Assembly: GCA_001818495.1 (NCBI GenBank)
Contig: MHKS01000005.1
Location: forward strand, 466,584-530,583
Direction: 5' to 3'
Length of the DNA: 64,000 bases
DNA from: Candidatus Komeilibacteria bacterium RIFOXYD1_FULL_37_29
Lineage (GTDB): Bacteria > Patescibacteriota > Patescibacteriia > UBA1558 > GWA2-36-10
Below are positions 3,801-54,050 of the stretch, in pieces. A model generated the notes under the pieces. It was given only the letters and a program-made list of their open reading frames with translations, made no database searches and was not told the origin of the DNA. Within the stretch, counting starts at the first letter, position 1, and each line of letters starts with the position of its first letter. The position numbers and the translations under genes are program-made.

Positions 3801-5639
3801 GCTGGCGCTTTGCTTGAGGATTTCATTTCGCAAAGATCCTTGTATTCTTTGCATACCCATATAGACCGCTCCGGCGATGGCGTCAGAATAAGCTGCTCCG
3901 GCAATAGAACCAGAAACAAAGCCCTTACCTAGAGCTTGCATCAGACTGTCGGGAGGATTTTTGCCAAATAATTTGGCAACATAAGATTTTTCATAAGCGC
4001 TTTTTCCCTTATTATCAATTTCGGCAAATTTTTCTTGGGCTACTACATCACCTAAGATAACATTCATTTCTCTAGAAACCATCAACTCGGCCTGAATAGC
4101 CAGTTTATTAATGTCCGCTTCGCTTAAGTCGGATGCTCCTTTTAGTTGTTTTAAGGCTTCTTCTATTTGATAAGCAGCATATTCTTCCAGAGCGTTATTA
4201 GCAGTTAATGATTTGATTAACTCCTGTCTGTCTTTGATATCTTCAGCTTGATATTTCTGGTCACTATTTTTTTTAGTATTTTCGGTAAGTACCAACAAAC
4301 TACAGATATGATCAATTTTAGCTCTTTTTTCATCGCTATTTTCACCGCTAAAAATATTTTCTATTTTTTCGTCATCAAACCTTAATCTATAAGCCAAATT
4401 TTTTTGAGTACCCATGCTTTCCTGTCGCTGTTTTTCAAATTTGAGCAGGGCATCCATATCATTTTTTAGCTGTTCAAAAAGACCGTTGGTATCTAAACCA
4501 TCTTTAGACATTTTTTCAGCCTGAGTAGCCAATTTTTTGAGACTTTGGGCGTTTAGTTTTTCAAAACCACGACTAGTCAGATAATTAAAACCAGATACTG
4601 CTGCACCAGTCAGTCCTCCGCCAGCTAATTTTAGGGCCAAAGCTGGTGCGCTGACAAATTTGAGGCCGGTCATGACAGCTCGATTGGCTAAAGCATAAGA
4701 ACCTCCACCCCAGACGCCTTTTAAGAGCTGACTACCCTCGGCTTTTAATTTATCTGTTTTAGAAGTATTGTTTTCTTTGGAGGCTGAGGCCTGTCGTATC
4801 TGATCTTGCATAACCACTTCGGCTTGCTGACAGAAATTTTCAAAGTATCTGTTTTTAAATTCCTCAGCATAAAGAGTATCCACGCCCATTTCCATGAGCA
4901 TGGTTTCATCAGTAATCATTTGAGCAAATTTTTCTTTTAGTTTTTTAATATCTTTTAAGTCATCAAAACTTAAGTTAGTAAAAAACTCATTAAATTTTTG
5001 GTTAGCGATTTGCTCTTGCTTGGCTTCCAAAATTGGTACTACTTCTTCAGAAATTGTCTCTGCTATAGCTAATGTTGGTTTGGGTGTCTCTACAGAAATT
5101 GGTTCTGGTTTGGGTGCTACCATTTCAGCGGTGTGGAGAGGGTTCGATTCTGCTTGAATAATCGGCTCAGGAGTTTTTGGTTTCTCGGATTTTTCTAGGC
5201 GTTCGGCTCGATTACTTTTGATTTCTGGAATCTCAGAATAGATAACCCTACTCTTTTCTTCAGCTGGCGCTCCAGAAAAAACAATTTCGCTAGTTACTTT
5301 CTTGGCACTTCTACCCCATTGATTTTTGGTGTTCTCTATAGCTGTACTTGCTTCGATAGCAACGTTTTCAGCAGAGCTACTAATATCTCTTAAAACAGCT
5401 GACTCGGCTGGAGTGGCTGCTGTTTTTATCTCTGATGGTGTATCCTTAAAATCAGCCACTTCATCTTCAATCATCGTAGTTGCTTCGTAGGCGCTAGTTT
5501 CTATTGGATCTAGCCTAGTTTCTCTAGCATTAGCTTTTAAAAGCTCTTCCATTCTTTCAGCTGATACTTCACCATATCTAGGATCTACTGACTGGCCTCC
5601 CCTAGAGCTCCTTTTATCTCCTTTGTTTCTTCTGTCCAT
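810..5639 (-). CDS. Giant 1609-aa acidic, K/E-rich coiled-coil protein with internal tandem repeats of about 100 aa. Function unknown; it may be a surface or adhesion protein.
   Basis: One uninterrupted ORF. Repeats include LGINTFENGLKAEDL...SPEAQTAKQALQHL and LGINAFDGGLDETEL...SQAAQALLEQL. Gly-rich amphipathic stretches such as GGGSYALANRAVMTGLKFVSAPALALKLAGGGLTGAAVSGF are present. No enzymatic motif is seen. Confidence 0.6.
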   Translation of the reverse strand: MDRRNKGDKRSSRGGQSVDPRYGEVSAERMEELLKANARETRLDPIETSAYEATTMIEDEVADFKDTPSEIKTAATPAESAVLRDISSSAENVAIEASTAIENTKNQWGRSAKKVTSEIVFSGAPAEEKSRVIYSEIPEIKSNRAERLEKSEKPKTPEPIIQAESNPLHTAEMVAPKPEPISVETPKPTLAIAETISEEVVPILEAKQEQIANQKFNEFFTNLSFDDLKDIKKLKEKFAQMITDETMLMEMGVDTLYAEEFKNRYFENFCQQAEVVMQDQIRQASASKENNTSKTDKLKAEGSQLLKGVWGGGSYALANRAVMTGLKFVSAPALALKLAGGGLTGAAVSGFNYLTSRGFEKLNAQSLKKLATQAEKMSKDGLDTNGLFEQLKNDMDALLKFEKQRQESMGTQKNLAYRLRFDDEKIENIFSGENSDEKRAKIDHICSLLVLTENTKKNSDQKYQAEDIKDRQELIKSLTANNALEEYAAYQIEEALKQLKGASDLSEADINKLAIQAELMVSREMNVILGDVVAQEKFAEIDNKGKSAYEKSYVAKLFGKNPPDSLMQALGKGFVSGSIAGAAYSDAIAGAVYMGMQRIQGSLRNEILKQSASEVKTTKDILSDFNNFALTNENIDQARGLISEARARIKLPDIKEAERAKIELQIQNLQNKMISEAKNITAEKNETVDTKKMAKSIVSQREKEIAQAADIATKERARKSFRGLWKTFAQLSNKEKFRTLGRAGLEGTKGAIAGAIGGELVNASSTALSGEDYNINQGLDNIYNRVILNTADTITSKDNTEIPNGDTANIEEKAEVPVDTTKAPALENSDSTLSEQKGILEQMQEVLAKQKQAANSGFKYSLQDDFDIEEMAVDTKDFIGPQKQDSLFPDTLANDSSLVEQKTQINEIAQALQSGDTIKADTLIKDSTLDSTTVDSLKNLVAVNEKLGINTFENGLKAEDLDKIICELDNDPKSPEAQTAKQALQHLLKNGSLSLEQYQETIKQHLGQELQLGNVELAKNAIGNSGIDIKTINEAVGRVELEKNLGINAFDGGLDETELKIISDQIHGGEKSQAAQALLEQLHKDGLITDQQKFSIEHPTVVKAGFKEEAGDEKDVKYKLSLELGKDAAPKHLEQVFYRLGIDNIDLDKGEVTNVEAARILNIGANLRVLSEGHDIAGITGEEFQKYVNIEGNKITITDYEGFQENVIAKLADHATEIIMAENVANTGAVAYIDNIKNETWGDMLSAEGVKDENIKFDQEQIQKAEGRVFQDNLEKSNLGELATEVNFSDEESGSFTLENQTITVENNQVVKIGDNILEEPLYLQDKESGEKLIDKVSETKATEFLSLVEKNQEAMMARLNEQLDNQSLQKIEIPESLLPKPEYDISTELNTALNKLGFDDAESRKEWNDLKKESLSELLHGKTEETIEDKDDAIKMHTREHMREFLEQAVRNDEIKVDDGMTVERAMKDLMVKETREKLMYDIAVAEQKVKSVQELEQIGKKGSETLRDQLKEGAESQKETISKQSDMSAGKLYENFLDEKLPTEEQLDKMSVDDLEKIKGRLEIFNYILKQNPPDDVEVADLDKAKKVIGENEAILEKINKRLDNTK

Positions 5640-14084: not shown

Positions 14085-14588
14085 ATGAGAGTACCAATTA
14101 GAAAAGCTGGACAATATACTTATATTAAATCTGATCCTCTGATGACTGAGGCTAAATTGACTGAACTTAAAAACCAGCTAAAAAAATTAAAAGAAATAAT
14201 TCAGCCCGAGCTAGCCAAAGAAGTTAAAAGATTGGCTTTGATGGGTGATTTTTCAGAAAATGCCGCCTACCAAATAGCTAAGGGTCGTTTGCGTGGAGCT
14301 AATGAAAAAATAGATAAAATTACTAAACAAATCGCTGAGGCCAAAATTATTAATCCTAGTAAAACTATTCATGAAATTGAGATTGGTCATCTAGTGACTA
14401 TTATTTCTAGTAAGCAAACAAAAAAGTATCGATTACTAGGATCATCAGAAACAAACCCCGCTCAAGGAGCTATTTCCTACCAGTCTCCCTTGGGTTCGGC
14501 TTTGCTAAATAAAAAAGTAGGCGAAATTGCTCAAGTAAAAATCGACGGACAAGTGACTGAATACAAAATAATAGCGATAGAATATTGA
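14085..14588 (+). CDS. GreA-like transcription elongation factor, a divergent paralog. The true start may be the Met at 14142.
   Basis: GDFSENAAYQIAKGRLRGANEKIDKITKQIAEAKII fits the GreA coiled-coil signature. The C-terminal FKBP-like domain is present. Confidence 0.7.
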   Translation: MRVPIRKAGQYTYIKSDPLMTEAKLTELKNQLKKLKEIIQPELAKEVKRLALMGDFSENAAYQIAKGRLRGANEKIDKITKQIAEAKIINPSKTIHEIEIGHLVTIISSKQTKKYRLLGSSETNPAQGAISYQSPLGSALLNKKVGEIAQVKIDGQVTEYKIIAIEY

Positions 14589-17748: not shown

Positions 17749-19440
17749 TTAAAATTTTACAATTTCTCCTGGGTTTAATTTTTTTCCGTTATTTTTTGGC
17801 TGAACATTTTCAGATGATTGGGATTTTGTTTTCGCCATTGGCGGTTCTTTGGTGATTACTTTACGTCCTTTTAAAGCTTCGGCCAAAGAAGTAAATTCTT
17901 CTTCTCGACCATCATCAGATATTATTTTAATACTGGATGGTGGCGGTACTTTACCAGCTCTAGACAAATCTAAACATTCCCGACAATAGATTGGTTTGGT
18001 GGGATCTGGATCAAAATTTATCTTAGTTTTTTTACCACAAAGATCACAAACAGCGTCATGGCTAATACCTGTTTCTTTTTTCTTCCTATTTTTCTGGTCA
18101 GAATTATTTTTGCCAGTGAGAGTAGCCGTGGCTTTAGTTTTATTGGTCTCTTCCACACCACGATTTTCTGACCAACGAATAATTTTGTCCTCAATCACTT
18201 CTCGTGGCCGGGCGTATCTTTCTCTGGTCACAGAGATTATTTTATCTTTGGTGTCCAAATTTTCTTCAGCTAGTGACACCGGCGGCAGAGTCCGTGCAGA
18301 AAAAGCCTCGGAAGTAACTCCGTCAATCATTAATTTTATATAAATTTCAAATTTAGACAAATTAACCAGATCTTCTTGCGTAAAAGTTGGAAAAAATTCT
18401 TTTTCCAAAAACTCGGCATCAGCCGCCCCAACTCTAAAAACAACCAAGGTGCCGACATTACCAAAGACAGCGGCTTGGACATTTTCCTCTACCTGCTCAA
18501 TATACTGATGGGCAATGATTAGATTTAAACGGTATTTTCTGGCTTCAGATAGAATATTCGCAAAAGATTCTGTGGCAAAATTTTGAAATTCATCGACATA
18601 GAGATAAAAATCTTTTCTTTCTTCTTCTGGTGTATCCACTCTACTCATGGCGGCCAGTTGAATCTTGGTAATCATCATAGCCCCCAAAAGAGCCGAATTG
18701 TCTTCTCCGACGCGTCCTTTAGAAAGATTCAAGAGCAATATTTTCTGGCTATCCATGATGTCACGCATAGAAAAAGATGATCTAACCTGACCTAAGATAT
18801 TTCTAATTAGGGCTGAGGAAAGAAAACGACCGACTTTATTTTGAATCGGAGCAATGGCTTCAGCCTGGAATCTATCTGGATATTTACTATATTCTTCTAA
18901 CCAAAAAGCTTTGACCACTGGATCAGATAATTTTTCTACTACTTTTTTTCTAAAAGCTTTATCGGTCAACATACGCATAATGCCCAGTAAAGTAGAGCCA
19001 GGATACTCTAGTAGCGCTGAAATAGCATGATGGAGCACATATTCTAGTCTTGGTCCCCAAGAATCTGCCCAAATTTTTTGGAAGACTCCAATTAGACCAG
19101 AAACTACCAAATGTCTTTGTCCAGCATCGACTTGTTCCAAAACATTAAAACCAATTGGAAAATCCAAATCAGCCGGATTAAAATATATCACATCATTAAT
19201 GCGATGTTTTGGTACAAAATTTATGACCTTTTCCACTAGGTCACCATGCGGATCAACTACACAAACTCCTTTACCGTCTTGGATATCTTGAATAATCATA
19301 TTTTCCAAGACAGTAGATTTGCCCATACCAGTTTTACCAATAAAATACATGTGGCGACGGCGGTCGTCAGTTTTTATCCCAAACTTAACATTGGAATTTC
19401 TAAAGTTTGTTTCAGCAAAAATTGTAATGCGGTTATCCAT
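17749..19440 (-). CDS. VirB4/VirD4 (FtsK-HerA) superfamily P-loop ATPase. This is the stand-alone ATPase half of a split module and carries a C-terminal Zn-ribbon tail.
   Basis: Walker A is HMYFIGKTGMGKST, followed by VVDPHGDL. Walker B is FYLYVDEFQ. The C-terminus has CDLCGKK...CREC. It is a paralog of the C-terminal half of 32753-35206. Confidence 0.75.
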   Translation of the reverse strand: MDNRITIFAETNFRNSNVKFGIKTDDRRRHMYFIGKTGMGKSTVLENMIIQDIQDGKGVCVVDPHGDLVEKVINFVPKHRINDVIYFNPADLDFPIGFNVLEQVDAGQRHLVVSGLIGVFQKIWADSWGPRLEYVLHHAISALLEYPGSTLLGIMRMLTDKAFRKKVVEKLSDPVVKAFWLEEYSKYPDRFQAEAIAPIQNKVGRFLSSALIRNILGQVRSSFSMRDIMDSQKILLLNLSKGRVGEDNSALLGAMMITKIQLAAMSRVDTPEEERKDFYLYVDEFQNFATESFANILSEARKYRLNLIIAHQYIEQVEENVQAAVFGNVGTLVVFRVGAADAEFLEKEFFPTFTQEDLVNLSKFEIYIKLMIDGVTSEAFSARTLPPVSLAEENLDTKDKIISVTRERYARPREVIEDKIIRWSENRGVEETNKTKATATLTGKNNSDQKNRKKKETGISHDAVCDLCGKKTKINFDPDPTKPIYCRECLDLSRAGKVPPPSSIKIISDDGREEEFTSLAEALKGRKVITKEPPMAKTKSQSSENVQPKNNGKKLNPGEIVKF

Positions 19441-19442
19441 AT

Positions 19443-20933
19443 TTAAGCAGTTGGTAAATTAGGTGGGGCTTGGTTTTTATTTTTTGGCTTGGGCATGGTA
19501 TGAGCACCTTTTTTGGCGAAGCGTTCTTCAAAATGTTTGTTGGCCAAATCTACACTAAAACTAGGAGCCAGTAATTGCTTTCTAAGGTCCTCGGTGATTT
19601 GGCCCTTGTCTAAATCCATGCCTCTGGAAACAGGTAAAGAAAATGGTGGCTCAGATTTTTTACTTTCAGTCCGTTGTAGTAATGGTGCTTTAACAAATTT
19701 ACTTGGGAAGTGCCAAACAGTCGCCAATTCTTCTGTGTTTAAAATATAATACCCATGCCCTCTAGTGCCACTACGAGCCTTATAACCACGCATTAAGTTT
19801 ATTCTGCGCATAGCTACTCTGCTCTTAATGAAGAAATAATCAATCTTAGTCTTAGTTTTTTTATCTGGTTTAAAGGAATTTAAATCCATAGTGTTAAATT
19901 GTTTGATAGAACCAAAAACAGAAGAAATAACTCGAGAAGCGGAATACTTATCATTGGGCGAGATATAAATCAAACGCATTTTACACTCAAAACCGGTTTT
20001 GCCAGTTTTTCTCTCAATGGCCTCAATGGCTCCTTTCTCGCCAGGGGTTAAATGAAGCATCATAGACGGCAAAACATCTTTTTTACCGCTAGAAGTTCCC
20101 CCCTTTAAATCTTGTGGCCAAATCATCGGTTCACCGGTGGATAGAAAAAATAAACTAGTCATTGGGTCAATCAGTCTATTAAGCCATCCCTTTTTATCGG
20201 AAAACTTTTTACCAGCTATTTTATAAACCTCTCTTAAACCCCTTTTAGGCCAGTCAAAACCAGTTGGTCTTACTATAATTTGAATCCACACCTGTTCCCC
20301 AACTTGAATCTTACTCATGGTTTCGAGTAGTGATGATATGGGGTCTTTAAATTCTCCGGAAACATTGTCTTCAAATTCTGTATAAGTCCGAATAGGATAA
20401 ACATCTTTTTTATCCAAGATAACTTCGGTACCCCAAATATTATGAGTATCATTGGGATAATCATCCGGCACAGCCCCCACATAATCCTCTACTTCGGTAA
20501 TTTCAGCATCAGGATATTGTGAATAAATAGAACTTTCTATTAAATCACGATATTGGCTAGGGGTACGAATTAAAAATTGGACATAACCATCAATGCTGAC
20601 AATTTCAAAAGAGAAGCTAAGCTGAAAACGACCCTCTACATATATTTCTCTTAAATTAAGCGGATCATGCGCTCCAGAAATAGTAGAGAAAAGCTGTTCT
20701 ACGGCCTTAGGTGTTTGTTCGGTGTCTTTGGGGACATCAATGGCTAAAATCACGAATTTATTGGTATTAAACCATTTAATACTCTGCTTCATATGCCAAA
20801 TAGCAAAAAAACCCCGGACAATGATATAAAAATATATAATCCAGCCACCGTTTTTAAAAAAATACCAAGCTATGGCTCCGAAGCCTTGATTCATAGCCGC
20901 GTACAATGATGATAAATCTAAAGTTATTTCCAT
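19443..20933 (-). CDS. Membrane-anchored protein homologous to the N-terminal domain of the fused ATPase at 32753-35206. It is the N-terminal half of the split module.
   Basis: One N-terminal TM helix. FSFEIVSIDGYVQFLIRTPSQYRDLIESSIYSQYP aligns with FSAEIVSDGGFINFYIATPTNYRDFLIQQLQAVYP in the fused paralog. The gap to the ATPase gene is 2 nt. Confidence 0.6.
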   Translation of the reverse strand: MEITLDLSSLYAAMNQGFGAIAWYFFKNGGWIIYFYIIVRGFFAIWHMKQSIKWFNTNKFVILAIDVPKDTEQTPKAVEQLFSTISGAHDPLNLREIYVEGRFQLSFSFEIVSIDGYVQFLIRTPSQYRDLIESSIYSQYPDAEITEVEDYVGAVPDDYPNDTHNIWGTEVILDKKDVYPIRTYTEFEDNVSGEFKDPISSLLETMSKIQVGEQVWIQIIVRPTGFDWPKRGLREVYKIAGKKFSDKKGWLNRLIDPMTSLFFLSTGEPMIWPQDLKGGTSSGKKDVLPSMMLHLTPGEKGAIEAIERKTGKTGFECKMRLIYISPNDKYSASRVISSVFGSIKQFNTMDLNSFKPDKKTKTKIDYFFIKSRVAMRRINLMRGYKARSGTRGHGYYILNTEELATVWHFPSKFVKAPLLQRTESKKSEPPFSLPVSRGMDLDKGQITEDLRKQLLAPSFSVDLANKHFEERFAKKGAHTMPKPKNKNQAPPNLPTA

Positions 20934-23206: not shown

Positions 23207-24877
23207 TTATTCTTTTACATTAACTCTTTTTACTCCAAATAAGGCCAATTTGCCTTCTAATTTTTTGTTTACTATTATTCTCAAAAATGTTCTAGTGACA
23301 GTAATAGCAGAAAACATGGATACCAGGATACCAATGCCCAAAGTAATAGCAAAACCTTTGATAATAGAAGTACCAAACCAAGCCAAAATTATACAAGTAA
23401 TAATTGAAGAGATGTTTGAATCTTTAATAGATGGCCAAGCTCTGGTAAAGCCATTTTCTATGGCGGTATTTAGGCTTTTACCTTCGCGCAATTCTTCTTT
23501 GGTACGCTCAAAAATGAGAACATTGGCATCTACCGCCATACCAATAGACAATATAAATCCAGCTACACCAGCCAAAGTCATAGTAACAGGAATAATCTCA
23601 AAAATCGCCAAGGTTAAAGCAGCATAAATAGCCAGAGCAACAACTGCTAAAAGCCCTGGCAACCTATAGAAAATTAACATAAACAAAGCGGCAGCAATAA
23701 AGCCAATTATACCAGCCAAAAGGCTTTGACCAAGAGATTCTTCTCCTAGACTAGCCCCGACTGTACTTTGGCTAATCAGTTCAATTGGCACTGGCAAAGC
23801 ACCTAAATTAAGATTTTTTACCAATTCTTTGGCTTCCAAAATACTAAAATTACCAGTAATTTGTGCTTGTCCATCTTTAATTGGTTCATTTACTACTGGA
23901 CTAGAAATCAATACTCCATCTAAAAATATAGCAATAGGCTTACCGACATTGTCTGTAGTCAACTCTCCAAAAAGATCACGACCCTTATCATTAAAGGATA
24001 ACAATACTAAAGGGGCCTGAGTATTTTGCTCAAAAGAAAGTTGAGCTTTAGCTATATCGCGACCACTTAAACCGGATTCTTCCCAAATAATATTTTCTAA
24101 ATCCGCATCTGTTTTTTGAAAAAGAATATGGGCTGAGTGTACTTCCAATTCTCCCTGATCATTCAATTTTTGATCTATTCTCTTTATAATATGATAGCCA
24201 AATTGTGATTCAATCAGCTCTTTAGAAATCTGTCCATCTTTTAAATCTTCAAAAATAGCTTTATCAAATTCCGGAACAAACAGTCCTTTTGTTACATAAC
24301 CCAAATCTCCGCCATTTATAGCTGATCCTGGGTCTTCACTATATTCTTTAGCTAAAGTAGAAAAATCTTCTCCCAGCAAAGCTCTATCCAAAACTTTCTG
24401 AGCATTAGCTTTTATTTCATTTTGCGCTTCGGTCACATTTTGCTCAGAAAGTTTTGCCTCTCCCTGTGTTTTAAATTCCAAATGAGGAGTCTTATCAATA
24501 ATAGCTATAGCTTCGTTGGCATCTTTAATTCCGGCTAATTCTACAATAATGCGATAATTATCACCACTAAAATTGGTCTGTACTACTGGCTCGGAAACAC
24601 CATAAGCGTTAACTCGTCTTTCAATAACATCTCGCAAAGCTTCCACGCCATCTCTTTTCTCTAATCCTTCTAAAGCTGAGACATCGGCTTGGTAGACCAA
24701 ATGTGTTCCTCCCTGAAGATCCAGACCCAAATGAACTTTAAACTTTCCAAACCAGCCGGGAGCGCTTGGCCAGACAATCAAACCGGCAAAAATAGCCAAC
24801 AAAAAAATCGCTAAAAATACGCTTCTAACTCTGGTGCTTGTCACTTGTTTATGTGATGTTTCGCTGTATTTATTCAT
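23207..24877 (-). CDS. secD: Protein-export membrane protein SecD carrying a parvulin-type PPIase domain inserted in its periplasmic P1 region.
   Basis: LGLDLQGGTHLVYQ is SecD and the C-terminal TM bundle is present. An embedded GEDFSTLAKEYSEDPGSAINGGDLGYVTKGLFVPEFDKAIFEDLKDGQISKELIESQFGYHIIK is a parvulin signature. Confidence 0.88.
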   Translation of the reverse strand: MNKYSETSHKQVTSTRVRSVFLAIFLLAIFAGLIVWPSAPGWFGKFKVHLGLDLQGGTHLVYQADVSALEGLEKRDGVEALRDVIERRVNAYGVSEPVVQTNFSGDNYRIIVELAGIKDANEAIAIIDKTPHLEFKTQGEAKLSEQNVTEAQNEIKANAQKVLDRALLGEDFSTLAKEYSEDPGSAINGGDLGYVTKGLFVPEFDKAIFEDLKDGQISKELIESQFGYHIIKRIDQKLNDQGELEVHSAHILFQKTDADLENIIWEESGLSGRDIAKAQLSFEQNTQAPLVLLSFNDKGRDLFGELTTDNVGKPIAIFLDGVLISSPVVNEPIKDGQAQITGNFSILEAKELVKNLNLGALPVPIELISQSTVGASLGEESLGQSLLAGIIGFIAAALFMLIFYRLPGLLAVVALAIYAALTLAIFEIIPVTMTLAGVAGFILSIGMAVDANVLIFERTKEELREGKSLNTAIENGFTRAWPSIKDSNISSIITCIILAWFGTSIIKGFAITLGIGILVSMFSAITVTRTFLRIIVNKKLEGKLALFGVKRVNVKE

Positions 24878-28759: not shown

Positions 28760-29461
28760 TCAATTTCCACCAAAACGACGCTGTCTCTTATTGTATTCTA
28801 AAATAGCTTTATCTAAATCTGCTTCCATAAATTCCGGCCAAGTCTTCTCTGGAAAATAGAGCTCGCTGTAAGTAGATTGCCAGGTTAAAAATCCCGACAA
28901 GCGCTCTTCCCCCGATGTACGGATAATCATATCTGGATCTGGTAGTCCAGCTGAGTCCAAATTTTGACTAATCAATTCCTGATCAATTTTATCAACGGTA
29001 ATTTTCTGAGCCACAATCTTTTTAAAAGCTCTCACTAGCTCATCACGACCACCATAACTAAGACAAATATTTAAGATGCCTCGCTGACCATTCTTAGTTT
29101 TCTCGCGGGCTTTTTTAATAGACTTTTGTAAGTCATGCTCAAAATCTTCCAGTCGGCCAAAAAAATTTACTTTGATACCCCGTTTAGACAATTTGTTTAT
29201 TTCTTTATTAACCAAAATTCTAAACAAATCCATCAAATAGGCTACTTCTTTTTTTTCTCTATTCCAATTTTCTGTTGAAAAAGCATAAACAGTTAAAATA
29301 TCTACACCTTTATCAAAAATATATTCAGCCGTTTTTTTAAGATTTTCAAAACCTAAACGATGTCCCTCAAAGGCTGGCAAACCTTTAGCTTTGGCAAAAC
29401 GGCGATTGCCGTCTAATATTATACCAATGTGTCTAGGAGTTTCCATAAAATTATTATACAT
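28760..29461 (-). CDS. uppS: Undecaprenyl diphosphate synthase.
   Basis: HIGIILDGNRRFAK and the RTSGEERLS motif are present. Length is 233 aa. Confidence 0.9.
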   Translation of the reverse strand: MYNNFMETPRHIGIILDGNRRFAKAKGLPAFEGHRLGFENLKKTAEYIFDKGVDILTVYAFSTENWNREKKEVAYLMDLFRILVNKEINKLSKRGIKVNFFGRLEDFEHDLQKSIKKAREKTKNGQRGILNICLSYGGRDELVRAFKKIVAQKITVDKIDQELISQNLDSAGLPDPDMIIRTSGEERLSGFLTWQSTYSELYFPEKTWPEFMEADLDKAILEYNKRQRRFGGN

Positions 29462-29469
29462 TTTTTATA

Positions 29470-29500
29470 ACAAAAAAACCACCCCAAAGAAGTGGCTTTT
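29470..29500 (-). terminator. Terminator after the second pilin-like gene.
   Basis: Minus strand reads AAAAAAGCCACTTCTTTGGGGTGG followed by TTTTTTTG. The stem is weak. Confidence 0.4.
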
Positions 29501-29512
29501 TTGTGTAGAGTA

Positions 29513-29887
29513 TTATCCAACAACAGTTTGTGCGTATAATTCACTCAATACAAATCTAGATACAGCATAAGCTACTAGTATGATAACCAAACCAACTACG
29601 CCAGCACCAATAAGCTTTTTAGCTTCATCAACCTTATCACTACTGCCATAAGAAGTCATCCATTTGAAACCACCAAAAAGAATAATCAAGGTAGTGAGGA
29701 TGCCTAAGAAACCCAAGATGATATTAACTACACCACCAATGGTGTCTCGAAGCGATCTTGATCCTAAGGCAATATCAGTGTTGGAGAAATCATTAAATCC
29801 CCAGTCATCTAAAGTAGTTTGAGCGTTAGCTGCTGCTGGAGCTAACAACAAAAGAAAAGTTAGTATTTTCTTCATAGAATTATGCAT
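29513..29887 (-). CDS. VirB2/TrbC-like pilin candidate with a Sec signal peptide and two hydrophobic helices. It is a paralog of the upstream gene.
   Basis: MKKILTFLLLLAPAAANA-QT is followed by two TM helices separated by a short polar loop. It is roughly 65% identical to the upstream protein. Confidence 0.5.
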   Translation of the reverse strand: MHNSMKKILTFLLLLAPAAANAQTTLDDWGFNDFSNTDIALGSRSLRDTIGGVVNIILGFLGILTTLIILFGGFKWMTSYGSSDKVDEAKKLIGAGVVGLVIILVAYAVSRFVLSELYAQTVVG

Positions 29888-29932
29888 TTACTAGTTAATT
29901 ATTTAATTAATTATTAATATATTAATATAGCA

Positions 29933-30289
29933 CTAAAATGTTTCGCTGTAAAGCTCACTAAGCACAAATCTGGAAATAGCATAAGCCGTTAAAACAATGA
30001 TTAAACCAATTGCTCCAGCTATGACCACGCCTTTACCTTTTTCACTTTTTTCGGCATTACCACCAGATGTCATCATATTAAATCCTCCCCACAAAATAGC
30101 GACTGTTGTTAATATGCCTAAAAAACCCAAAATGATATTAACTACACCACCAATGGTGTCTCGAAGCGATCTTGATCCTAAGGCTACTTCGGCATCTGTA
30201 AAATCATTATACCCCCAATCGTCTAAGGCGGTCTGAGCATTAGCCATTATTGGTGCTAAAAGTAGTGCAAAGGCTAATATCTTTTTCAT
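29933..30289 (-). CDS. VirB2/TrbC-like pilin candidate with a signal peptide and two hydrophobic helices.
   Basis: MKKILAFALLLAPIMANA-QT is followed by DDWGYNDF, then VVNIILGFLGILTTVAILWGGF, a loop, then VVIAGAIGLIIVLTAYAISRFVL. The ORF-track start at 30325 lies upstream of the predicted TSS, so the Met at 30289 is used instead. Confidence 0.5.
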   Translation of the reverse strand: MKKILAFALLLAPIMANAQTALDDWGYNDFTDAEVALGSRSLRDTIGGVVNIILGFLGILTTVAILWGGFNMMTSGGNAEKSEKGKGVVIAGAIGLIIVLTAYAISRFVLSELYSETF

Positions 30290-30316
30290 AAATAACTTAT
30301 TTTTATTAATACCTAT

Positions 30317-30345
30317 ATTATACACTAATTTTGGATATTTGTAAA
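30317..30345 (-). promoter_or_regulatory. Strong sigma70-type promoter for the pilin-like gene pair: TTTACA, a 17-nt spacer, then TATAAT.
   Basis: The minus strand reads TTTACA-AATATCCAAAATTAGTG-TATAAT. Confidence 0.6.
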
Positions 30346-30361
30346 TAAATTTTGGATATTT
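30329..30361 (-). promoter_or_regulatory. Two direct repeats AAATATCCAAAA spaced 21 bp apart. One overlaps the promoter spacer and the other lies just upstream of the -35; they are candidate operator sites.
   Basis: On the plus strand ttttggatattt occurs at 30329-30340 and at 30350-30361. Confidence 0.4.
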
Positions 30362-30379: not shown

Positions 30380-30399
30380 TTTGTTCGCTTGGTTCGGGG
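30380..30399. repeat. Copy 1 of a 20-bp direct repeat (tttgttcgcttggttcgggg). It duplicates the 3' end of tRNA-Gln plus the 10 bp downstream of it.
   Basis: Identical to 30475-30494. No intact tRNA is associated with this copy. Confidence 0.6.
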
Positions 30400-30474: not shown

Positions 30475-30494
30475 TTTGTTCGCTTGGTTCGGGG
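30475..30494. repeat. Copy 2 of the 20-bp direct repeat, spanning the last 10 nt of tRNA-Gln and 10 nt downstream of it.
   Basis: Identical to 30380-30399. Confidence 0.6.
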
Positions 30495-30558
30495 ACAGGG
30501 ACTCGAACCCCGATTGACGGGACCAGAACCCGTTGTCCTACCATTAGACGATCCCCGA
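30485..30558 (-). tRNA. tRNA-Gln (anticodon CTG) with an encoded CCA.
   Basis: A manual fold of TCGGGGA TC GTCT AATGGTA GGAC A ACGGG TTCTGGT CCCGT CAAT CGGGG TTCGAGT CCCTG TCCCCGA A CCA gives a cloverleaf. The acceptor stem has a U1-A72 pair, which is typical of tRNA-Gln. Confidence 0.88.
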
Positions 30559-32752: not shown

Positions 32753-35206
32753 CTAAACCATAGCAATACGACTATTTATCTCGCTTTCCACTACCCTTTT
32801 ATCGCGACCATATCTTAAGCGAGATAATTCCTTTATACTTCTAGCTAATTCATAATTACCCTTTTCCGGTAATATTGGATTAAAATTAAAAGCTGGCGGA
32901 TTTTGATTATCAATTAATAACCTAATATAGCAGGTGTATTTGGGCATGTTGATAAGATCATATTCAGTCACTACCGGTGCCATTTGTTTGGCTATGACTT
33001 CAGCATCGTCTACTCCGATTCGATAAGATACCAATGTACCAACATTGCCAAAGACAGAATCTTTGACGCTAGTATTATTATTTTTAGTTAATTGAGCCAA
33101 AAATTGATGAGCTAAAATCAAATTTAATTTATACTTTCTAGCCTCTGATAATATCACTGAGATGCTTTCGGTAATATAATTTTGAAACTCATCAATATAC
33201 AAATAAAAGTCTGCCCTTTCTTCTTCTGGTATATCCACCCGACTCAAAGCGGCAAACAATATTTTTCCGATCATAATCATGCCCAAAAGACTACTATTCA
33301 TTTCACCAATGCGACCTTTGGATAAATTGATAATAATAATTTTATTTTCGTCCATAGCTTTTCGAAAATTAAAAGCTGACTTCGCCTGGGAAATAATCGG
33401 CCGAATAGTATCGTTAGATATAAAAGGCGTTAATTTACTAGTAATGTAGGGCACCATATTGGCCAAGGCCGCTTCACCACCGGCTTTTTGAGCTTCTTTT
33501 TCCCAAAAATCTTTCACTAATTGATTTTTGGCTTTGGCTAATTTCTTTTTTCTATATTCAGCATCAGATAAAACTTTGGGAATTTCTAATAGTGTAGCCG
33601 AATTTTCTTTATCATCCATCAAAAGTAACATAGTATTTCTCATGTATTGTTCAAAAATCGGGCCGCCCGTTGCTTTGAGATCATACAACTTATCAAAAAT
33701 AGCAATCATCTCGTTGATTACAAAAGTTTTTTGTTCTTCTGTTTCAAACTCTAGCATATTGATGCCAATAGGACGTTCGGTGTCTGATGGATCAAAAAAT
33801 ATTACATCTTCCGCTCTGGCTTTGGGCACATGAGACAAAATAGTTTCTGCCAAATCTCCATGTGGATCCAAAACGCAAACACCCTTGCCATTAGCTATAT
33901 CTTGAATAGCCAAACTCTCTAAAAAGACCGATTTACCAGTACCGGTTTGCCCGATGGTATACATATGCCGACGACGATCAGCATCTTTTATTCTGACTAG
34001 GGTTTCTTTGCCACGATAAATGCTTTTACCTAACACTACGCCTTCTCTTGGCATATCCGCCGGTGGAGCTGCTTTGGCTGCCTCTAACCAAGCGATATTG
34101 GGTGTTTCACTGGTGGGCAGGGGTAAATGAATAATACTAGTCATTTCTTCTGAATTCAAAATCATACTACGTTTAGGCAAAAAATGACGATAAATAAAAT
34201 GTTCAATGTAAGAATCATTTTTTTTGGGTATCTGGGCTCTAAAACTATTGCCAAACTCATAGATATTGAATTGACTGTAGCTATTTAAAATGTCATTCAA
34301 AATCATACCAGAACGCTCCGAGCTGGGTGTAGAGACAACTACTCTGATATTGACCTCGAGAGCGGATTTGGAAGTTTTTTCTTCCATAGCTTTGGCTCTT
34401 TCCTGCTCCATAGCAGACATAAGCGGTTTTTCCTGAGGTTTGTTTAGTGGTTTTTCTTTTTCTTTGGAAGCAACAAAAGTACCAAAAAATTTTAAAACTT
34501 TACTGAGATTACCCCAAAATCCACCACCGCCAAGTTTTTTAACAGCCTCATTGTAATGAATACCAGTATACATATACTTGGCTATTTTTTTGCCGCGCGC
34601 GTGCCACCGCGCCGGAGCAGAGCGAAAAACATATTGGACAGCCGCCCCCTCTCCGTCTTTTAATTTACTCAAAGAATTGGTAATGGCTTCTAGTGGATCA
34701 TTTTCAAAATGACGATAAGTTTTTATTGGTAAGCTATAATCATTGGTAAAATAAAGAATACCCGCCTTGATATGACCCTGGGGCTGAAAAATATTATAAT
34801 CAACCGCTAGTTCAAAATATATTTTAGGATAAACCGCTTGCAGTTGTTGGATTAAAAAATCTCTATAATTAGTCGGCGTGGCTATATAAAAATTTATAAA
34901 TCCGCCATCCGAAACAATTTCAGCGGAAAAAACATCCGTCCGTCGGCTAAACATTTTTTTCTGAATTCTTAGTCCACTTAGAGCGGCAAACAAATTTTCT
35001 ACTTGCCCCAATTGTGTCTGGACATAATCTTTACCATACTCCTCTTTTTTCTGTTTGGTATATTTTGGTATTTTGACTAAAAGTATCTCCTGTTGAAGAC
35101 TTTTATTGGATTTATTGTTAAAATAATTTAATAAAAAATAAACAAAAATGCCCAAGAAAATAATTCCTATCAATGAAACTATAGCTATAGTGATATATTC
35201 ATTCAT
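32753..35206 (-). CDS. Fused VirB4/VirD4-superfamily ATPase of 817 aa. An N-terminal TM helix and a domain of about 370 aa are followed by a P-loop ATPase.
   Basis: Walker A is HMYTIGQTGTGKSV, followed by VLDPHGDL. Walker B is FYLYIDEFQ. The N-terminal half is homologous to 19443-20933 and the C-terminal half to 17749-19440. Confidence 0.75.
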   Translation of the reverse strand: MNEYITIAIVSLIGIIFLGIFVYFLLNYFNNKSNKSLQQEILLVKIPKYTKQKKEEYGKDYVQTQLGQVENLFAALSGLRIQKKMFSRRTDVFSAEIVSDGGFINFYIATPTNYRDFLIQQLQAVYPKIYFELAVDYNIFQPQGHIKAGILYFTNDYSLPIKTYRHFENDPLEAITNSLSKLKDGEGAAVQYVFRSAPARWHARGKKIAKYMYTGIHYNEAVKKLGGGGFWGNLSKVLKFFGTFVASKEKEKPLNKPQEKPLMSAMEQERAKAMEEKTSKSALEVNIRVVVSTPSSERSGMILNDILNSYSQFNIYEFGNSFRAQIPKKNDSYIEHFIYRHFLPKRSMILNSEEMTSIIHLPLPTSETPNIAWLEAAKAAPPADMPREGVVLGKSIYRGKETLVRIKDADRRRHMYTIGQTGTGKSVFLESLAIQDIANGKGVCVLDPHGDLAETILSHVPKARAEDVIFFDPSDTERPIGINMLEFETEEQKTFVINEMIAIFDKLYDLKATGGPIFEQYMRNTMLLLMDDKENSATLLEIPKVLSDAEYRKKKLAKAKNQLVKDFWEKEAQKAGGEAALANMVPYITSKLTPFISNDTIRPIISQAKSAFNFRKAMDENKIIIINLSKGRIGEMNSSLLGMIMIGKILFAALSRVDIPEEERADFYLYIDEFQNYITESISVILSEARKYKLNLILAHQFLAQLTKNNNTSVKDSVFGNVGTLVSYRIGVDDAEVIAKQMAPVVTEYDLINMPKYTCYIRLLIDNQNPPAFNFNPILPEKGNYELARSIKELSRLRYGRDKRVVESEINSRIAMV

Positions 35207-48339: not shown

Positions 48340-49353
48340 TTATTTGGCCGATAAAATACTCCTCTTATAAGACTCCAAATTTTCCAAGGCGATGCCCGTT
48401 CCACGGGCCACACAAAGAAGTGCGTCATCAGCGACATAGGCTGGCACGCCAGTGGCTTGGCTAAGTAATCTATCTATATTTCTTAAAAGTGCTGTACCAC
48501 CAGATAAGACCATCCCCTTATCCATAATATCAGCCGATAATTCCGGTGGAGTTTGGTAAAGCACCGACTTAACAGCTGTGATTAAACTTTGTAATTCATT
48601 TTGTAAAGCTTCAGTCACATCATCGGAATTGACCTTAACAGTGCGTGGTAAACCAGTGATCATATCTCGCCCCTTAATATCCATAGTTAATTTTTCTTCT
48701 TTTGGTAAAAATTGAGCACTACCAATTCTTATTTTTACTTCTTCAGCGCTACGTTCACCAATCGCTAGATTATACTTTCTCTTTATATACTCCCCAATAG
48801 CGGCATCATATTTATTACCACCAATTCTGACTGATGTATTGGCTACTATCCCTCCCAAAGAAATAACCGCTATTTCACTGGTACCACCGCCCATATCTAC
48901 TATCATATGCCCCGATGCTGACCCAATAGGAATATCAGCTCCAATAGCGGCAGCAATGGGCTCTTTGATAATATAAGCAGCTTTAGCGCCAGCATTTAAA
49001 GTAGCATCGATGACTGCCCGACGCTCCGTAGAAGTAATACCAGCTGGTACGGCGATCATAACTTCTGGACGAAATATTTTCATCCCACCAACTGCTTTAT
49101 TAATAAAATATTTAAGCATACTTTCCGTAATCCGATAATCGGCAATTACTCCATCTTTAAGTGGCCTGGCGGCAATAATAGAATCTGGTGTTCGTCCAAT
49201 CATCTCTTTGGCCTCATCACCAACCGCTAAAACTTTTTTATCCAAAACAGAAATAGCCACAACCGATGGTTCGTTTATGACTATACCTCTTTTGGGAATA
49301 TATACCAAGGTATAGGTAGTCCCCAAATCTATGCCAATTTTCTTTATAAACAT
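48340..49353 (-). CDS. MreB/Mbl-family actin homolog, paralog 2.
   Basis: GIDLGTTYTLVYIPKRGIVINEPSVVA and the downstream actin-fold motifs are present. Length is 337 aa. Confidence 0.85.
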   Translation of the reverse strand: MFIKKIGIDLGTTYTLVYIPKRGIVINEPSVVAISVLDKKVLAVGDEAKEMIGRTPDSIIAARPLKDGVIADYRITESMLKYFINKAVGGMKIFRPEVMIAVPAGITSTERRAVIDATLNAGAKAAYIIKEPIAAAIGADIPIGSASGHMIVDMGGGTSEIAVISLGGIVANTSVRIGGNKYDAAIGEYIKRKYNLAIGERSAEEVKIRIGSAQFLPKEEKLTMDIKGRDMITGLPRTVKVNSDDVTEALQNELQSLITAVKSVLYQTPPELSADIMDKGMVLSGGTALLRNIDRLLSQATGVPAYVADDALLCVARGTGIALENLESYKRSILSAK

Positions 49354-49360
49354 GGATTAT

Positions 49361-49819
49361 CTATTGAATTTCTAATATCTTACAGGTTGTTTTTCTTCCT
49401 GGCAAATTAATTTCTGCTTCATCACCAACAGACTTACCCATCAAGGCCTCCCCAAAAGGAGATTCTAAAGAAATCTTACCACGAACTGGATCTGCTTCGG
49501 TACTACCAACAATAGTAAAATTCATAATTTGTCCTTCTTTATCTATCTTGACCTGAGAACCAACATGCACCCGACCATCACTACTGGCTTTTTCAGCTAC
49601 TGAAGATGTCTTGATTAATCGCTCCAACTCTAAAATACGACCTTCCACAAAAGATTGTTCTTCTTTGGCTTCCTGATATTCAGCATTTTCTGATAAATCC
49701 CCCAGCTCTTTGGCTTGTTTGATTCGATCAGAGACCTGTGGGCGCTTATTGTTTTTCAAATGCTCTAGTTCTTCTTTGAGCTTATTTAAACCCTCTTTGG
49801 TTAAAATTTTATTATCCAT
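49361..49819 (-). CDS. greA: Transcription elongation factor GreA.
   Basis: LTKEGLNKLKEELEHLKNNKRPQVSDRIKQAKELGDLSENAEYQEAKEEQSFVEGRILELE is canonical GreA. The start is the Met at 49819. Confidence 0.9.
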   Translation of the reverse strand: MDNKILTKEGLNKLKEELEHLKNNKRPQVSDRIKQAKELGDLSENAEYQEAKEEQSFVEGRILELERLIKTSSVAEKASSDGRVHVGSQVKIDKEGQIMNFTIVGSTEADPVRGKISLESPFGEALMGKSVGDEAEINLPGRKTTCKILEIQ

Positions 49820-49856
49820 AAACAACTTATTATTATTATATTTAAATCTTAGCAAA

Positions 49857-52997: not shown

Positions 52998-54050
52998 TTA
53001 GTGTAATCCCAAATCTTTAGCCGAAGGAAGAAGTATTTCTTTTAGGTTATCTAGATCATCCAATACCTTGCCCGTACCACGCACCACGGCTGTCAGTGGA
53101 TCATCAGTAATATGGACCGGCATTTTGGTTTCTTGTGCTATCAAAACATCTAGACCCTTAAGTAAGGCACCACCACCAGATAAGACCATCCCTTTTTCAT
53201 ATAAATCTGAAACCAACTCCGGTGGAGTATTTTCTATTGTGCTTTTTATATTCTCTATAATCAATCTAATGGGTTTAATAATCGCTTCTCTGATATTAGC
53301 ATCGGTGACTTGCACTTCCTTGGGCAAACCAGTTAAAAGATCTCGGCCACGAATAATGGATTTGACTGATTTTTCGCCCAAAATAACTGAGCCAATTTGT
53401 ATCTTAATTTTTTCAGCCGTACGCTCGCCTAATAAAAGATTAAATTTATCCCGAGCGTATTGAACAATTGCCTCGTTTAATTTATCACCAGCCATCTTTA
53501 ATGATTTCCATGAAACTACACCACCTAGAGAAATAACCGCTATCTCCGTAGTTCCACCGCCAATATCAACAATCATTGATCCAGAGGCCTCCTGAATAGG
53601 CAATCCAGCACCAATGGCGGCGGCCATAGGCTCTTCAATCAAAAGTACTTCTGATGCTCCGGCTCCCATGACAGAGTCCTCTACCGCTTTTCTCTCTACT
53701 TCCGTCACATCAAGTGGTATACCAACTATTACTCGCGGCCGAGGCATAAAAGTAAATGATTTACGATGCACCTTTTCAATAAAATGTTTAATCATTTTTT
53801 CAGTTACTTCAAAATCCGAAATAATGCCGTCAACCAATGGTCTAGTGACGGTAATATGCTGTGGAGTTTTTCCAAGCATGACTTTGGCATCTTCACCAAC
53901 GGCTACTATTTTTTCCGTACGATTATTAATAGCTACAATCGATGGTTCATTGATGACAATACCCTGATCTTTGACATAAACCAAAATATTGGCCGTGCCT
54001 AAATCAATGCCAATATCTTTGGAAAAATTTTTAAAAATTCTTCTAAACAT
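52998..54050 (-). CDS. mreB: Rod shape-determining protein MreB.
   Basis: IGIDLGTANILVYVKDQGIVINEPSIVA is the MreB N-terminus. The rest aligns to MreB throughout. Confidence 0.9.
   Translation of the reverse strand: MFRRIFKNFSKDIGIDLGTANILVYVKDQGIVINEPSIVAINNRTEKIVAVGEDAKVMLGKTPQHITVTRPLVDGIISDFEVTEKMIKHFIEKVHRKSFTFMPRPRVIVGIPLDVTEVERKAVEDSVMGAGASEVLLIEEPMAAAIGAGLPIQEASGSMIVDIGGGTTEIAVISLGGVVSWKSLKMAGDKLNEAIVQYARDKFNLLLGERTAEKIKIQIGSVILGEKSVKSIIRGRDLLTGLPKEVQVTDANIREAIIKPIRLIIENIKSTIENTPPELVSDLYEKGMVLSGGGALLKGLDVLIAQETKMPVHITDDPLTAVVRGTGKVLDDLDNLKEILLPSAKDLGLH

Follow-up and report, generated by a model that had tools for sequence, protein, structure and literature searches.

Two small genes, A and B, lie in tandem on the minus strand between a tRNA-Gln(CUG) gene and uppS in the stretch analysed here of the genome of the groundwater bacterium Candidatus (Ca.) Komeilibacteria RIFOXYD1_FULL_37_29 (64,000 nt of contig MHKS01000005.1, hereafter the window), and by their profile matches they encode members of the Pfam family PF18895 (T4SS_pilin). 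We consider it probable that the two products are paralogous subunits of the VirB2-like pilin family of Patescibacteria type IV secretion systems (T4SSs) and are built into a T4SS-dependent surface structure; our confidence is high as regards their identity and moderate as regards their assembly into a filament.

Both proteins match PF18895 over the full model, A with 39.7 bits (positions 2–71 of 71) and B with 33.3 bits (2–70 of 71), and as both pass the gathering threshold of 26.6 bits they belong to the family. The product of gene A is identical with the NCBI protein A2406_02155 and that of gene B with A2406_02160, both from Ca. Komeilibacteria RIFOXYC1_FULL_37_11, and a precomputed PF18895 match is on record for both of these database proteins. 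At least 120 homologues were found among the matches listed, all of them PF18895-positive, and several carry the NCBI label ‘pilin’ or ‘TrbC/VirB2 family protein’. Approximately 40 of these 120 listed relatives also have precomputed matches to PF04956 (TrbC/VirB2), such matches occurring in more distant family members (43–50% identity). In an exhaustive profile search, 51,869 cluster representatives had E ≤ 1e-3, and 13,261 of them E ≤ 1e-10. In addition, both pilins match the NCBIfam family NF045849, the Mbov_0395-family pilin-like conjugal transfer proteins of mycoplasma integrative and conjugative elements (ICEs), with 37.3 and 36.1 bits (E 1.6e-9 and 3.9e-9); these matches are near full length (model positions 7–78 of 80), yet fall below the equivalog cutoff of 40 bits, indicating homology and not membership. 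Arrays of VirB2-like pilin genes have been described previously in Patescibacteria (PMC12102498, PMC10633639, PMC12857230). A preliminary description, made from the sequence alone, had proposed that A and B are T4SS-type two-helix pilins of the VirB2 kind, and the PF18895 scores, the PF04956 matches of the relatives and the published arrays all bear this out.

Domain organization and predicted structure of A and B

The cleavage site and membrane topology were read by sequence rules. In A, residues 1–18 form the signal peptide, in which MKK is followed by a 12-residue hydrophobic core with an invariant proline and then by ANA|Q; the pattern MKKIL...ANA|QT is present in both pilins, and 45 homologues keep the n, h and c regions as well as the AxA|Q site. 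The signal peptide is followed by an acidic segment of approximately 22 residues (net charge −4 and −3) which contains DDWG(Y/F)NDF (DDWGYNDF in A) and within it a conserved W-G-x-N motif, and thereafter by a hydrophobic helix 1, a short polar loop (T-S-x-G-x) and a hydrophobic helix 2, so that the signal peptide, motif and two hydrophobic segments of the preliminary description are all present. The mature pilin has approximately 100 aa. Hydropathy places the hydrophobic segments at residues ~45–71 and ~84–114, and AlphaFold2, supplied with the homologue alignment, predicted a signal helix at 2–15 and a hairpin of helices 42–73 and 79–117, with predicted local distance difference test (pLDDT) values of 86–93 in the helices and a mean of 76.6. 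Positions invariant in the 45-homologue alignment are P13, G26, G38, N51, GFLG, GG, S75, G77, AG, GL and Y103, with invariant glycine and serine positions in the loop.

Several other classes of protein were considered and rejected. A type IV pilin of the type IV pilus/type II secretion system kind would need a G|F/M-xxx-E prepilin peptidase site, which is absent, and there is a signal peptidase I (SPase I)-type AxA|Q site instead; a sortase-assembled pilin was rejected since LPXTG is absent from both proteins, and a lipoprotein since a motif check found no cysteine or lipobox in either. A holin was rejected on the predicted cleavable signal peptide, which is atypical of holins. The preliminary description had likewise set aside type IV pilins and holins.

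Gene boundaries and evolution of the pair

Gene B has an alternative start at ATG 29887, which would give a protein of 124 aa, and gene A has an upstream GTG at 30325, the end coordinate of the preliminary description, which would give 130 aa and a longer ORF (open reading frame) enclosing the −10 hexamer of its promoter-like element. On the basis of the homologue alignment and of promoter position, the promoter-like element of gene A lying inside the GTG-30325 ORF, we favour for both genes the shorter versions listed in Table 1. Sizes of 119 and 124 aa had been given previously; the second is obtained from ATG 29887, and the favoured lengths are 118 and 120 aa. Comparison of orthologues, in which the amino acids are kept and synonymous change is abundant, shows that the pilin genes are under purifying selection, and because of this and of the many homologues both ORFs are taken as real genes. 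No third pilin-like ORF was found among all six-frame ORFs of the window with a hidden Markov model (HMM) built from the 45 homologues, which finds A and B only.

The two pilins are 69% identical over 117 residues without gaps (E 5e-60), and this identity is unevenly distributed at the DNA level. They share an identical run of 53 nt across codons 36–52, and in the helix-1 region the paralogues within a genome have nucleotide identities of 0.91 (window) and 0.92 (the related locus L006), compared with 0.76–0.78 for orthologues across genomes; among helix-1 codons for the same amino acid, 20 of 26 (window) and 22 of 25 (L006) are identical in paralogues, compared with 10–11 of 24 in cross-genome orthologues. 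In the loop and helix-2 region this relationship is reversed, with identities of 0.73 (A–A) and 0.80 (B–B) for orthologues and of 0.60 (window) and 0.72 for paralogues, and the same mosaic is found independently in L006. Two loop types recur among the 120 listed homologues, ‘GGFxMMTS’ in 27 and ‘GGFxW[ML]TS’ in 90. The mosaic pattern and the recurring loop types together indicate that the duplication is old and that the 5′ halves have undergone repeated gene conversion. By these comparisons A and B are two ancient conserved subtypes, which differ mainly in the loop and helix 2, and their signal peptides, N-terminal segments and helix-1 halves are kept alike within the genome by gene conversion; the latter is likely to contribute to the 69% identity, which exceeds the published within-array maximum. 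The tandem duplication proposed earlier, with an identity of ~65%, thus stands as far as paralogy is concerned, whereas the event was ancient and blurred by gene conversion, not recent.

Genomic context

The features of the locus are listed in Table 1. In close relatives the gene order is conserved as DUF4012–murJ–lepA–two small ORFs–817-aa ATPase–small ORF–dnaX–tRNA-Gln–pilins–uppS–β-propeller, with two or three pilin copies, and the pilin–ATPase order is kept in six related loci (L002, L005, L006, L010, L013 and L021). The position of the pair just downstream of tRNA-Gln on the minus strand agrees with the preliminary description. The rest of the window is of a housekeeping nature (SecA, SecDF, DnaX, LepA, MurJ, Ddl, PBP2, MreB/C, tRNA synthetases, glycosyltransferases and RNase P RNA).

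Table 1 Features of the pilin locus and of the neighbouring ATPase genes (positions are those of the window)
Feature	Position	Strand	Description
Pilin gene A	29933–30289	minus	118 aa, ATG 30289 to stop 29933; subtype A, loop ‘GGFNMMTSGGNAEKSEKGKG’
Pilin gene B	29513–29875	minus	120 aa, ATG 29875 to stop 29513; subtype B, loop ‘GGFKWMTSYGSSDKVDEAKK’; layout as gene A
tRNA-Gln(CUG)	30485–30558	minus	Immediately upstream of pilin pair; context conserved in relatives; sole Rfam match at locus
uppS	28760–29461		Downstream of pilin pair
Promoter-like element, gene A	30317–30345	minus	TTTACA-17-TATAAT, 11/12 match; −10 ends 27 nt upstream of ATG 30289
Promoter-like element, gene B	29924–29952	minus	TTTACA-17-TATATT, extended −10 TG, 10/12 match; overlaps gene A end
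Intrinsic terminator hairpin	29470–29504	minus	16-bp stem, 3-nt loop, A-tract/U-tract arms
817-aa fused protein	32753–35206	minus	N-terminal transmembrane helix, DUF8128 (~1–390), VirD4/TrwB-type ATPase (~390–817); three genes upstream of pilins
Split paralogue	17749–20933	minus	496-aa DUF8128 protein (19443–20933), then 563-aa VirD4/TrwB-type ATPase (17749–19440)

To place the locus in a broader context, we surveyed 80 species-representative loci holding this pilin subfamily, each with ±10 kb of flanking DNA. Arrays of 2–15 pilin genes were present in 74 of the 80 loci, and the P-loop ORFs of at least 500 aa that were checked at those loci proved to be FtsK, SMC, UvrA, DnaX or a type IV coupling protein (T4CP)-like protein. 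A DUF8128 ATPase lay within 10 kb of the pilins at only three of the 80 loci, and in another Komeilibacteria genome pilin and ATPase are 36 locus tags apart (COV55_04195 and COV55_04375). Given this rarity, and because the intervening and flanking genes (dnaX, tRNA-Gln, uppS, lepA and murJ) are housekeeping genes, we regard the pilin–ATPase adjacency as inherited, lineage-specific synteny.

Expression signals

Sites matching the σ70 consensus at 11 of 12 positions occur in this AT-rich window at the rate expected by chance (four observed, 4.0 expected), so the match upstream of gene A was rejected as statistical evidence; the near-consensus promoter described previously is there, and its significance taken alone is not. 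Comparable TTxACA-16/17-TATAAT-like elements precede each pilin gene both here and in L006, and the gene B element aligns with that before the second pilin gene of L006, so that the case for promoters is made by position and by the presence of similar elements at each pilin gene. The second element could drive gene B independently. Folding detected no stable hairpin between A and B.

Downstream of the pair, the terminator anticipated by the preliminary description was recovered as a hairpin followed by a U-run, with a ΔG of −18.9 kcal/mol (RNAfold; z = −5.4, 0 of 200 shuffles as stable), which begins 9 nt past the stop codon of gene B and ends 9 nt before the uppS ORF. A consensus terminator scanner found nothing at the pilin locus and missed this hairpin. 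Since no promoter-like site was detected in the DNA from the hairpin to the uppS start, uppS is probably transcribed by read-through.

Two direct repeats were observed upstream of gene A. A 13-nt repeat, AATATCCAAAATT, occurs at 30327–30339 and 30348–30360 on the minus strand, 21 nt apart, and brackets the gene A −35 hexamer; with one further one-mismatch copy there are three matches in the 64 kb, compared with 0.92 expected by chance, and the repeat is a candidate regulator-binding site. Closer to the tRNA gene, a perfect 20-nt repeat, TTTGTTCGCTTGGTTCGGGG (plus strand), occurs at 30380–30399 and 30475–30494 with a spacing of 95 nt, one copy covering the tRNA-Gln 3′ end and 10 nt past it, and the two copies flanking a GC-rich stretch of ~75 nt with two hairpins. 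The repeat-bracketed region had no Rfam match. In the relatives L005 and L006, extra copies of the tRNA 3′-end motif (CCCCGAGCCA) lie downstream of the tRNA with differing intervening sequence. The TTTGTTCGCTTGGTTCGGGG repeat looks like an att-type scar of integration and excision at the tRNA gene.

Neighbouring ATPases

The window also contains two paralogous modules, each combining DUF8128 (PF26449) with a VirD4/TrwB-type ATPase as judged by their domain matches, one fused and one split (Table 1). The ATPase domains of the 817-aa and 563-aa proteins are 45% identical (E 4e-120), and the DUF8128 part of the former has 25% identity with the 496-aa ORF (E 1e-25); the 563-aa ATPase carries a C-terminal CxxC-x17-CxxC zinc finger of the treble-clef type. 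PF10412 (TrwB_AAD_bind), PF02534 (T4SS-DNA_transf) and PF12696 (TraG-D_C) score above their gathering thresholds in both ATPases, the best NCBIfam matches are to TraD and VirD4 families, and homologues are labelled VirD4/TraG/TraD-type in their source records. A profile of the ATPase family retrieved only TrwB and DotL, and no VirB4, from the PDB sequences. VirB4 models scored far below cutoff in the ATPases (TIGR00929 VirB4_CagE 13.1 bits against 643; NF045975 22.7 bits, in the Walker A region only), and neither ATPase has a CagE_TrbE_VirB or AAA_10 Pfam match.

The AlphaFold2 model of the 817-aa protein (pLDDT 84.7) gave full-length TrwK/VirB4 as the top-ranked Foldseek match (E 2.4e-14), but with a TM-score of 0.30 and 10% identity, and the C-terminal domain superposes on TrwB (TMt 0.64–0.68, root-mean-square deviation ~4.7 Å, 17–18% identity) and on Cag-β. 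Searching HMMs of the ATPase domain and of DUF8128 against PrgJ (VirB4) and PcfC (T4CP) of pCF10 was uninformative. By sequence the ATPases are of the coupling-protein type (VirD4/TrwB); the term ‘VirB4-like’, used for both in the preliminary description, is defensible for the two-domain layout and not for the family. Among the 120 best matches listed, which come from several named Patescibacteria lineages, identity with the fused protein exceeds 50%. Quinonero-Coronel et al. (2025) reported approximately two T4CP homologues per genome, seldom near virB4, and a T4CP homologue that is non-essential in Southlakia (PMC12102498), and the two ATPases of the window match that number. No relaxase or other conjugation genes were found near the ATPases in the window.

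Other members of the family and other features of the window

Outside the window, the family includes giant proteins of 1,755–3,521 aa (P0264, P0265, P0289, P0294, P0311 and P0384), the first ~120 residues of which form a complete pilin module with signal peptide and two helices; in the two that were scanned, P0264 and P0289, this module is followed by IPT/TIG and Big_5 Ig-like domains. These proteins, which are not mentioned in the literature cited here, look like pilin-anchored adhesins. Other polypeptides consist of 2–17 tandem pilin modules, such as P0248 (1,775 aa) and P0241 (552 aa), which has six modules and a signal peptide on the first only; these might be genuine ‘polypilins’, or else arrays whose genes were run together when called under a different genetic code. 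Many family records are titled ‘uncultured Gammaproteobacteria bacterium’ (third-party annotation assemblies; e.g. L015, L017, L025 and L033) and isolated records ‘Planctomycetota’ or ‘Lysobacteraceae’; mislabelling or contamination of bins is the probable explanation, and not a true occurrence outside the Candidate Phyla Radiation (CPR).

The pilin profile also aligns with nearly the whole length of PrgF of pCF10 (L097 19545–19772; 75 aa, no signal peptide), with 12.3 bits and a high composition bias, and PrgF itself has no PF18895 match. Taken with the mycoplasma ICE matches, this hints weakly at a VirB2-like hairpin component that belongs to the monoderm MPF_FATA systems themselves.

Several further observations concern the rest of the window. 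A SecD at 23207–24877 has a parvulin-type peptidylprolyl isomerase (Rotamase) domain between its SecD_1st and P1-head domains, an architecture also found in the relatives L001, L005 and L006. At 810–5639 lies a 1,609-aa ORF, rich in glutamate, lysine and alanine, with no Pfam or NCBIfam match, transmembrane segment or Walker A motif. Two MreB paralogues (48340–49353 and 52998–54050) flank PBP2, MreC and a small ORF, and two GreA/GreB-family genes (14085–14588 and 49361–49855) occur in this one 64-kb stretch of a genome of ~0.9 Mb.

Discussion

According to a scheme drawn from homology and from work on Saccharibacteria, SPase I would cleave the precursor after Ala18 and the mature hairpin would lie in the cytoplasmic membrane, its two ends outside and its loop facing the cytoplasm. 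A VirB4-type T4SS, encoded outside the window, would draw subunits from this membrane pool, and the extracted subunits would polymerize into a surface filament or conduit, which this monoderm, host-dependent bacterium may use for contact or exchange with its host cell. The assembly GCA_001818445.1 (RIFOXYC1_FULL_37_11, class ABY1), whose proteins are identical with A and B, was scored VirB4-positive in Table S1 of the published survey (PMC12102498).

A number of results weigh against this interpretation. VirB4, VirB3, VirB6, TrsD, a relaxase, comF, recG and radA were not recognized in the window, and as VirB4 was within 10 kb of the pilins at none of the 80 loci, the T4SS assignment of this subfamily comes from homology and not from context. 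Both pilins miss the PF04956 threshold of 27.9 bits, B with 17.9 bits (E 0.0037) and the other with 12.2 bits (E 0.21). HHalign, run against six bona fide VirB2 proteins whose genes each lie between virB1 and virB3 on alphaproteobacterial MPF_T plasmids, gave an alignment that starts at the AxAQ site and extends co-linearly over both helices, at a probability of 13.5% and E 0.002. The pilin profile found only chance matches (G-protein-coupled receptors and eIF2B) among all PDB sequences, and Foldseek of the pilin model against the PDB found generic helical hairpins, none at E ≤ 0.001, both searches being uninformative for so simple a fold; a tblastn search of 72,556 plasmids with the mature pilin returned one chance match only. 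Lastly, filament assembly is extrapolated from homologues, and no filament has been reported for any PF18895 member. The similarity to TrbC/VirB2 expected by the preliminary description is thus present in the relatives that reach PF04956, with A and B themselves below threshold. We see the link to canonical VirB2 as a weak but consistent similarity, combined with shared topology and a published structure-based annotation.

Among the alternatives, A and B might be envelope-confined VirB2-like components that form a short stalk or line a channel and make no extended pilus. The closest curated family outside Patescibacteria is NF045849 of mycoplasma ICEs, whose pilin-like proteins may be of this sort; the VirB4 of Patescibacteria falls within the monoderm MPF_FATA class, in which pili are generally lacking (PMC12102498), and many systems depend on VirB2 although they make no pilus (PMC12857230). 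However, both the large arrays of 2–15 sequence-diverse copies and the giant proteins with an N-terminal pilin module and TIG/Big_5 domains are more easily explained by a surface-exposed fibre, and we consider the envelope-confined arrangement rather unlikely. A more elaborate form of the fibre has also been considered, in which A and B are non-redundant, co-retained pilin types of a heteropolymeric VirB2-type fibre with built-in adhesins, encoded in stand-alone arrays and possibly served by no dedicated neighbouring VirB4. It is suggested by the A and B subtypes, the giant pilin-headed Ig-like proteins and the multi-module ‘polypilins’, and we put it forward as a speculation with the odds well against it. 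In the solved F- and T-pili, the side of the loop and second helix is lumen- or lipid-facing and not the exposed surface, which is relevant by analogy to the differences between A and B.

The preliminary description had suggested a dispersed T4SS-like apparatus from the pilins and the two VirB4-like ATPases; taken as a self-contained one, it would combine the pilins with the nearby DUF8128 ATPases of the VirD4/VirB4 superfamily. Although the 817-aa ATPase is in conserved order three genes upstream in close relatives, it can be aligned with VirB4/TrwK over the whole of its two-domain layout, and both families are near-universal in the phylum, this proposal is not supported by the context survey: adjacency is confined to three of the 80 loci and is absent from another Komeilibacteria genome, the genes in between and around are housekeeping genes, no VirB4 is recognizable in the window, and the ATPases are of the coupling-protein type by sequence; in Southlakia, moreover, the T4CP homologue is not essential and the pilins are (PMC12102498). 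We therefore consider such an apparatus very improbable. Least credible of all is that A and B are unrelated small bitopic membrane proteins, such as holin-like ones, matched to the pilin model by their hydrophobic composition only. Two-helix hairpins are low in information, Foldseek gives only generic hairpins, the HHalign match to VirB2 is weak and that to PrgF has ~12 bits with a high composition bias. Against this, PF18895 scores lie 7–13 bits above the curated cutoff over the full model, the specific invariant positions are more than hydrophobicity would account for, holins do not typically have a cleavable signal peptide, PF04956 is matched by relatives, and the homologous array of Southlakia lies within a T4SS cluster.

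The Patescibacteria (CPR), which live attached to host cells, account for a large part of bacterial diversity. In Southlakia, their T4SS and its VirB2-like pilins have been shown to be essential for growth, and no other T4SS components are known to be so in any bacterium. According to a 2025 review, the Patescibacteria systems are unique among monoderms in their potential for conjugative-type pili (PMC12857230). Theirs would be the first T4SS structure of a pilus-like kind from a monoderm. A structure-clustering preprint lists PF18895 as the dominant domain of freshwater-specific clusters. The present subfamily, from ABY1- and Parcubacteria-type genomes, forms stand-alone arrays away from virB4, and the gene conversion of the 5′ halves complicates the published proposal that the diversity of arrays is a means of surface variation. 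As this kind of element has been described and the RIFOXYC1_FULL_37_11 assembly is in the surveyed dataset, the feature itself is already known; the locus adds no new kind of element, and serves as a clear and minimal example, with two genes and defined expression signals.

Comparison with known systems

The ATPases of the window resemble VirD4/TrwB coupling proteins in matching three T4CP Pfam models above threshold and in their TrwB-like nucleotide-binding fold, but differ in that the usual two-transmembrane anchor is replaced by a DUF8128 module of ~390 aa, which is either part of the same protein or encoded by a gene of its own upstream.

With VirB2, TrbC and TraA of Gram-negative MPF_T/F systems, the pilins share an exported precursor, a mature helical hairpin with a short loop and a weak co-linear alignment. 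They differ in being below the PF04956 threshold, in a mature form of ~100 aa that starts with an additional acidic segment of ~22 aa, in the monoderm nature of their host and in the absence of flanking virB1, virB3 and virB4, unlike the six reference VirB2 genes. The leaders of VirB2 and TraA are long, whereas the window pilins have an ordinary 18-aa signal peptide. The Mbov_0395/MMCAP2_0565 family of mycoplasma ICEs is similar in its near-full-length NF045849 match, its wall-less or monoderm hosts and its MPF_FATA-type T4SS; A and B, however, score below the 40-bit cutoff and are located among chromosomal housekeeping genes, not in an ICE.

The closest likeness is to the arrays of Patescibacteria themselves. 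Quinonero-Coronel et al. screened 3,035 genomes of Patescibacteria for PF04956 and PF18895 and found VirB2-like pilins in 1,948 VirB4-containing assemblies, with a pilin gene near virB4 in 1,135, and 441 arrays of 2–11 pilin genes (PMC12102498). With these arrays and with that of Ca. Southlakia epibionticum ML1, A and B share the Pfam family, size, signal peptide and hairpin, tandem copies, chromosomal location and a host-dependent monoderm CPR bacterium. The Southlakia array, which is essential, lies inside the T4SS locus, whereas the array of the window is neither in nor near a virB4 cluster, there being no VirB4 in the 64 kb; and compared with the surveyed arrays, with a mean within-array identity of 25% and a maximum of 54%, the present one has only two genes, which at 69% are unusually alike.

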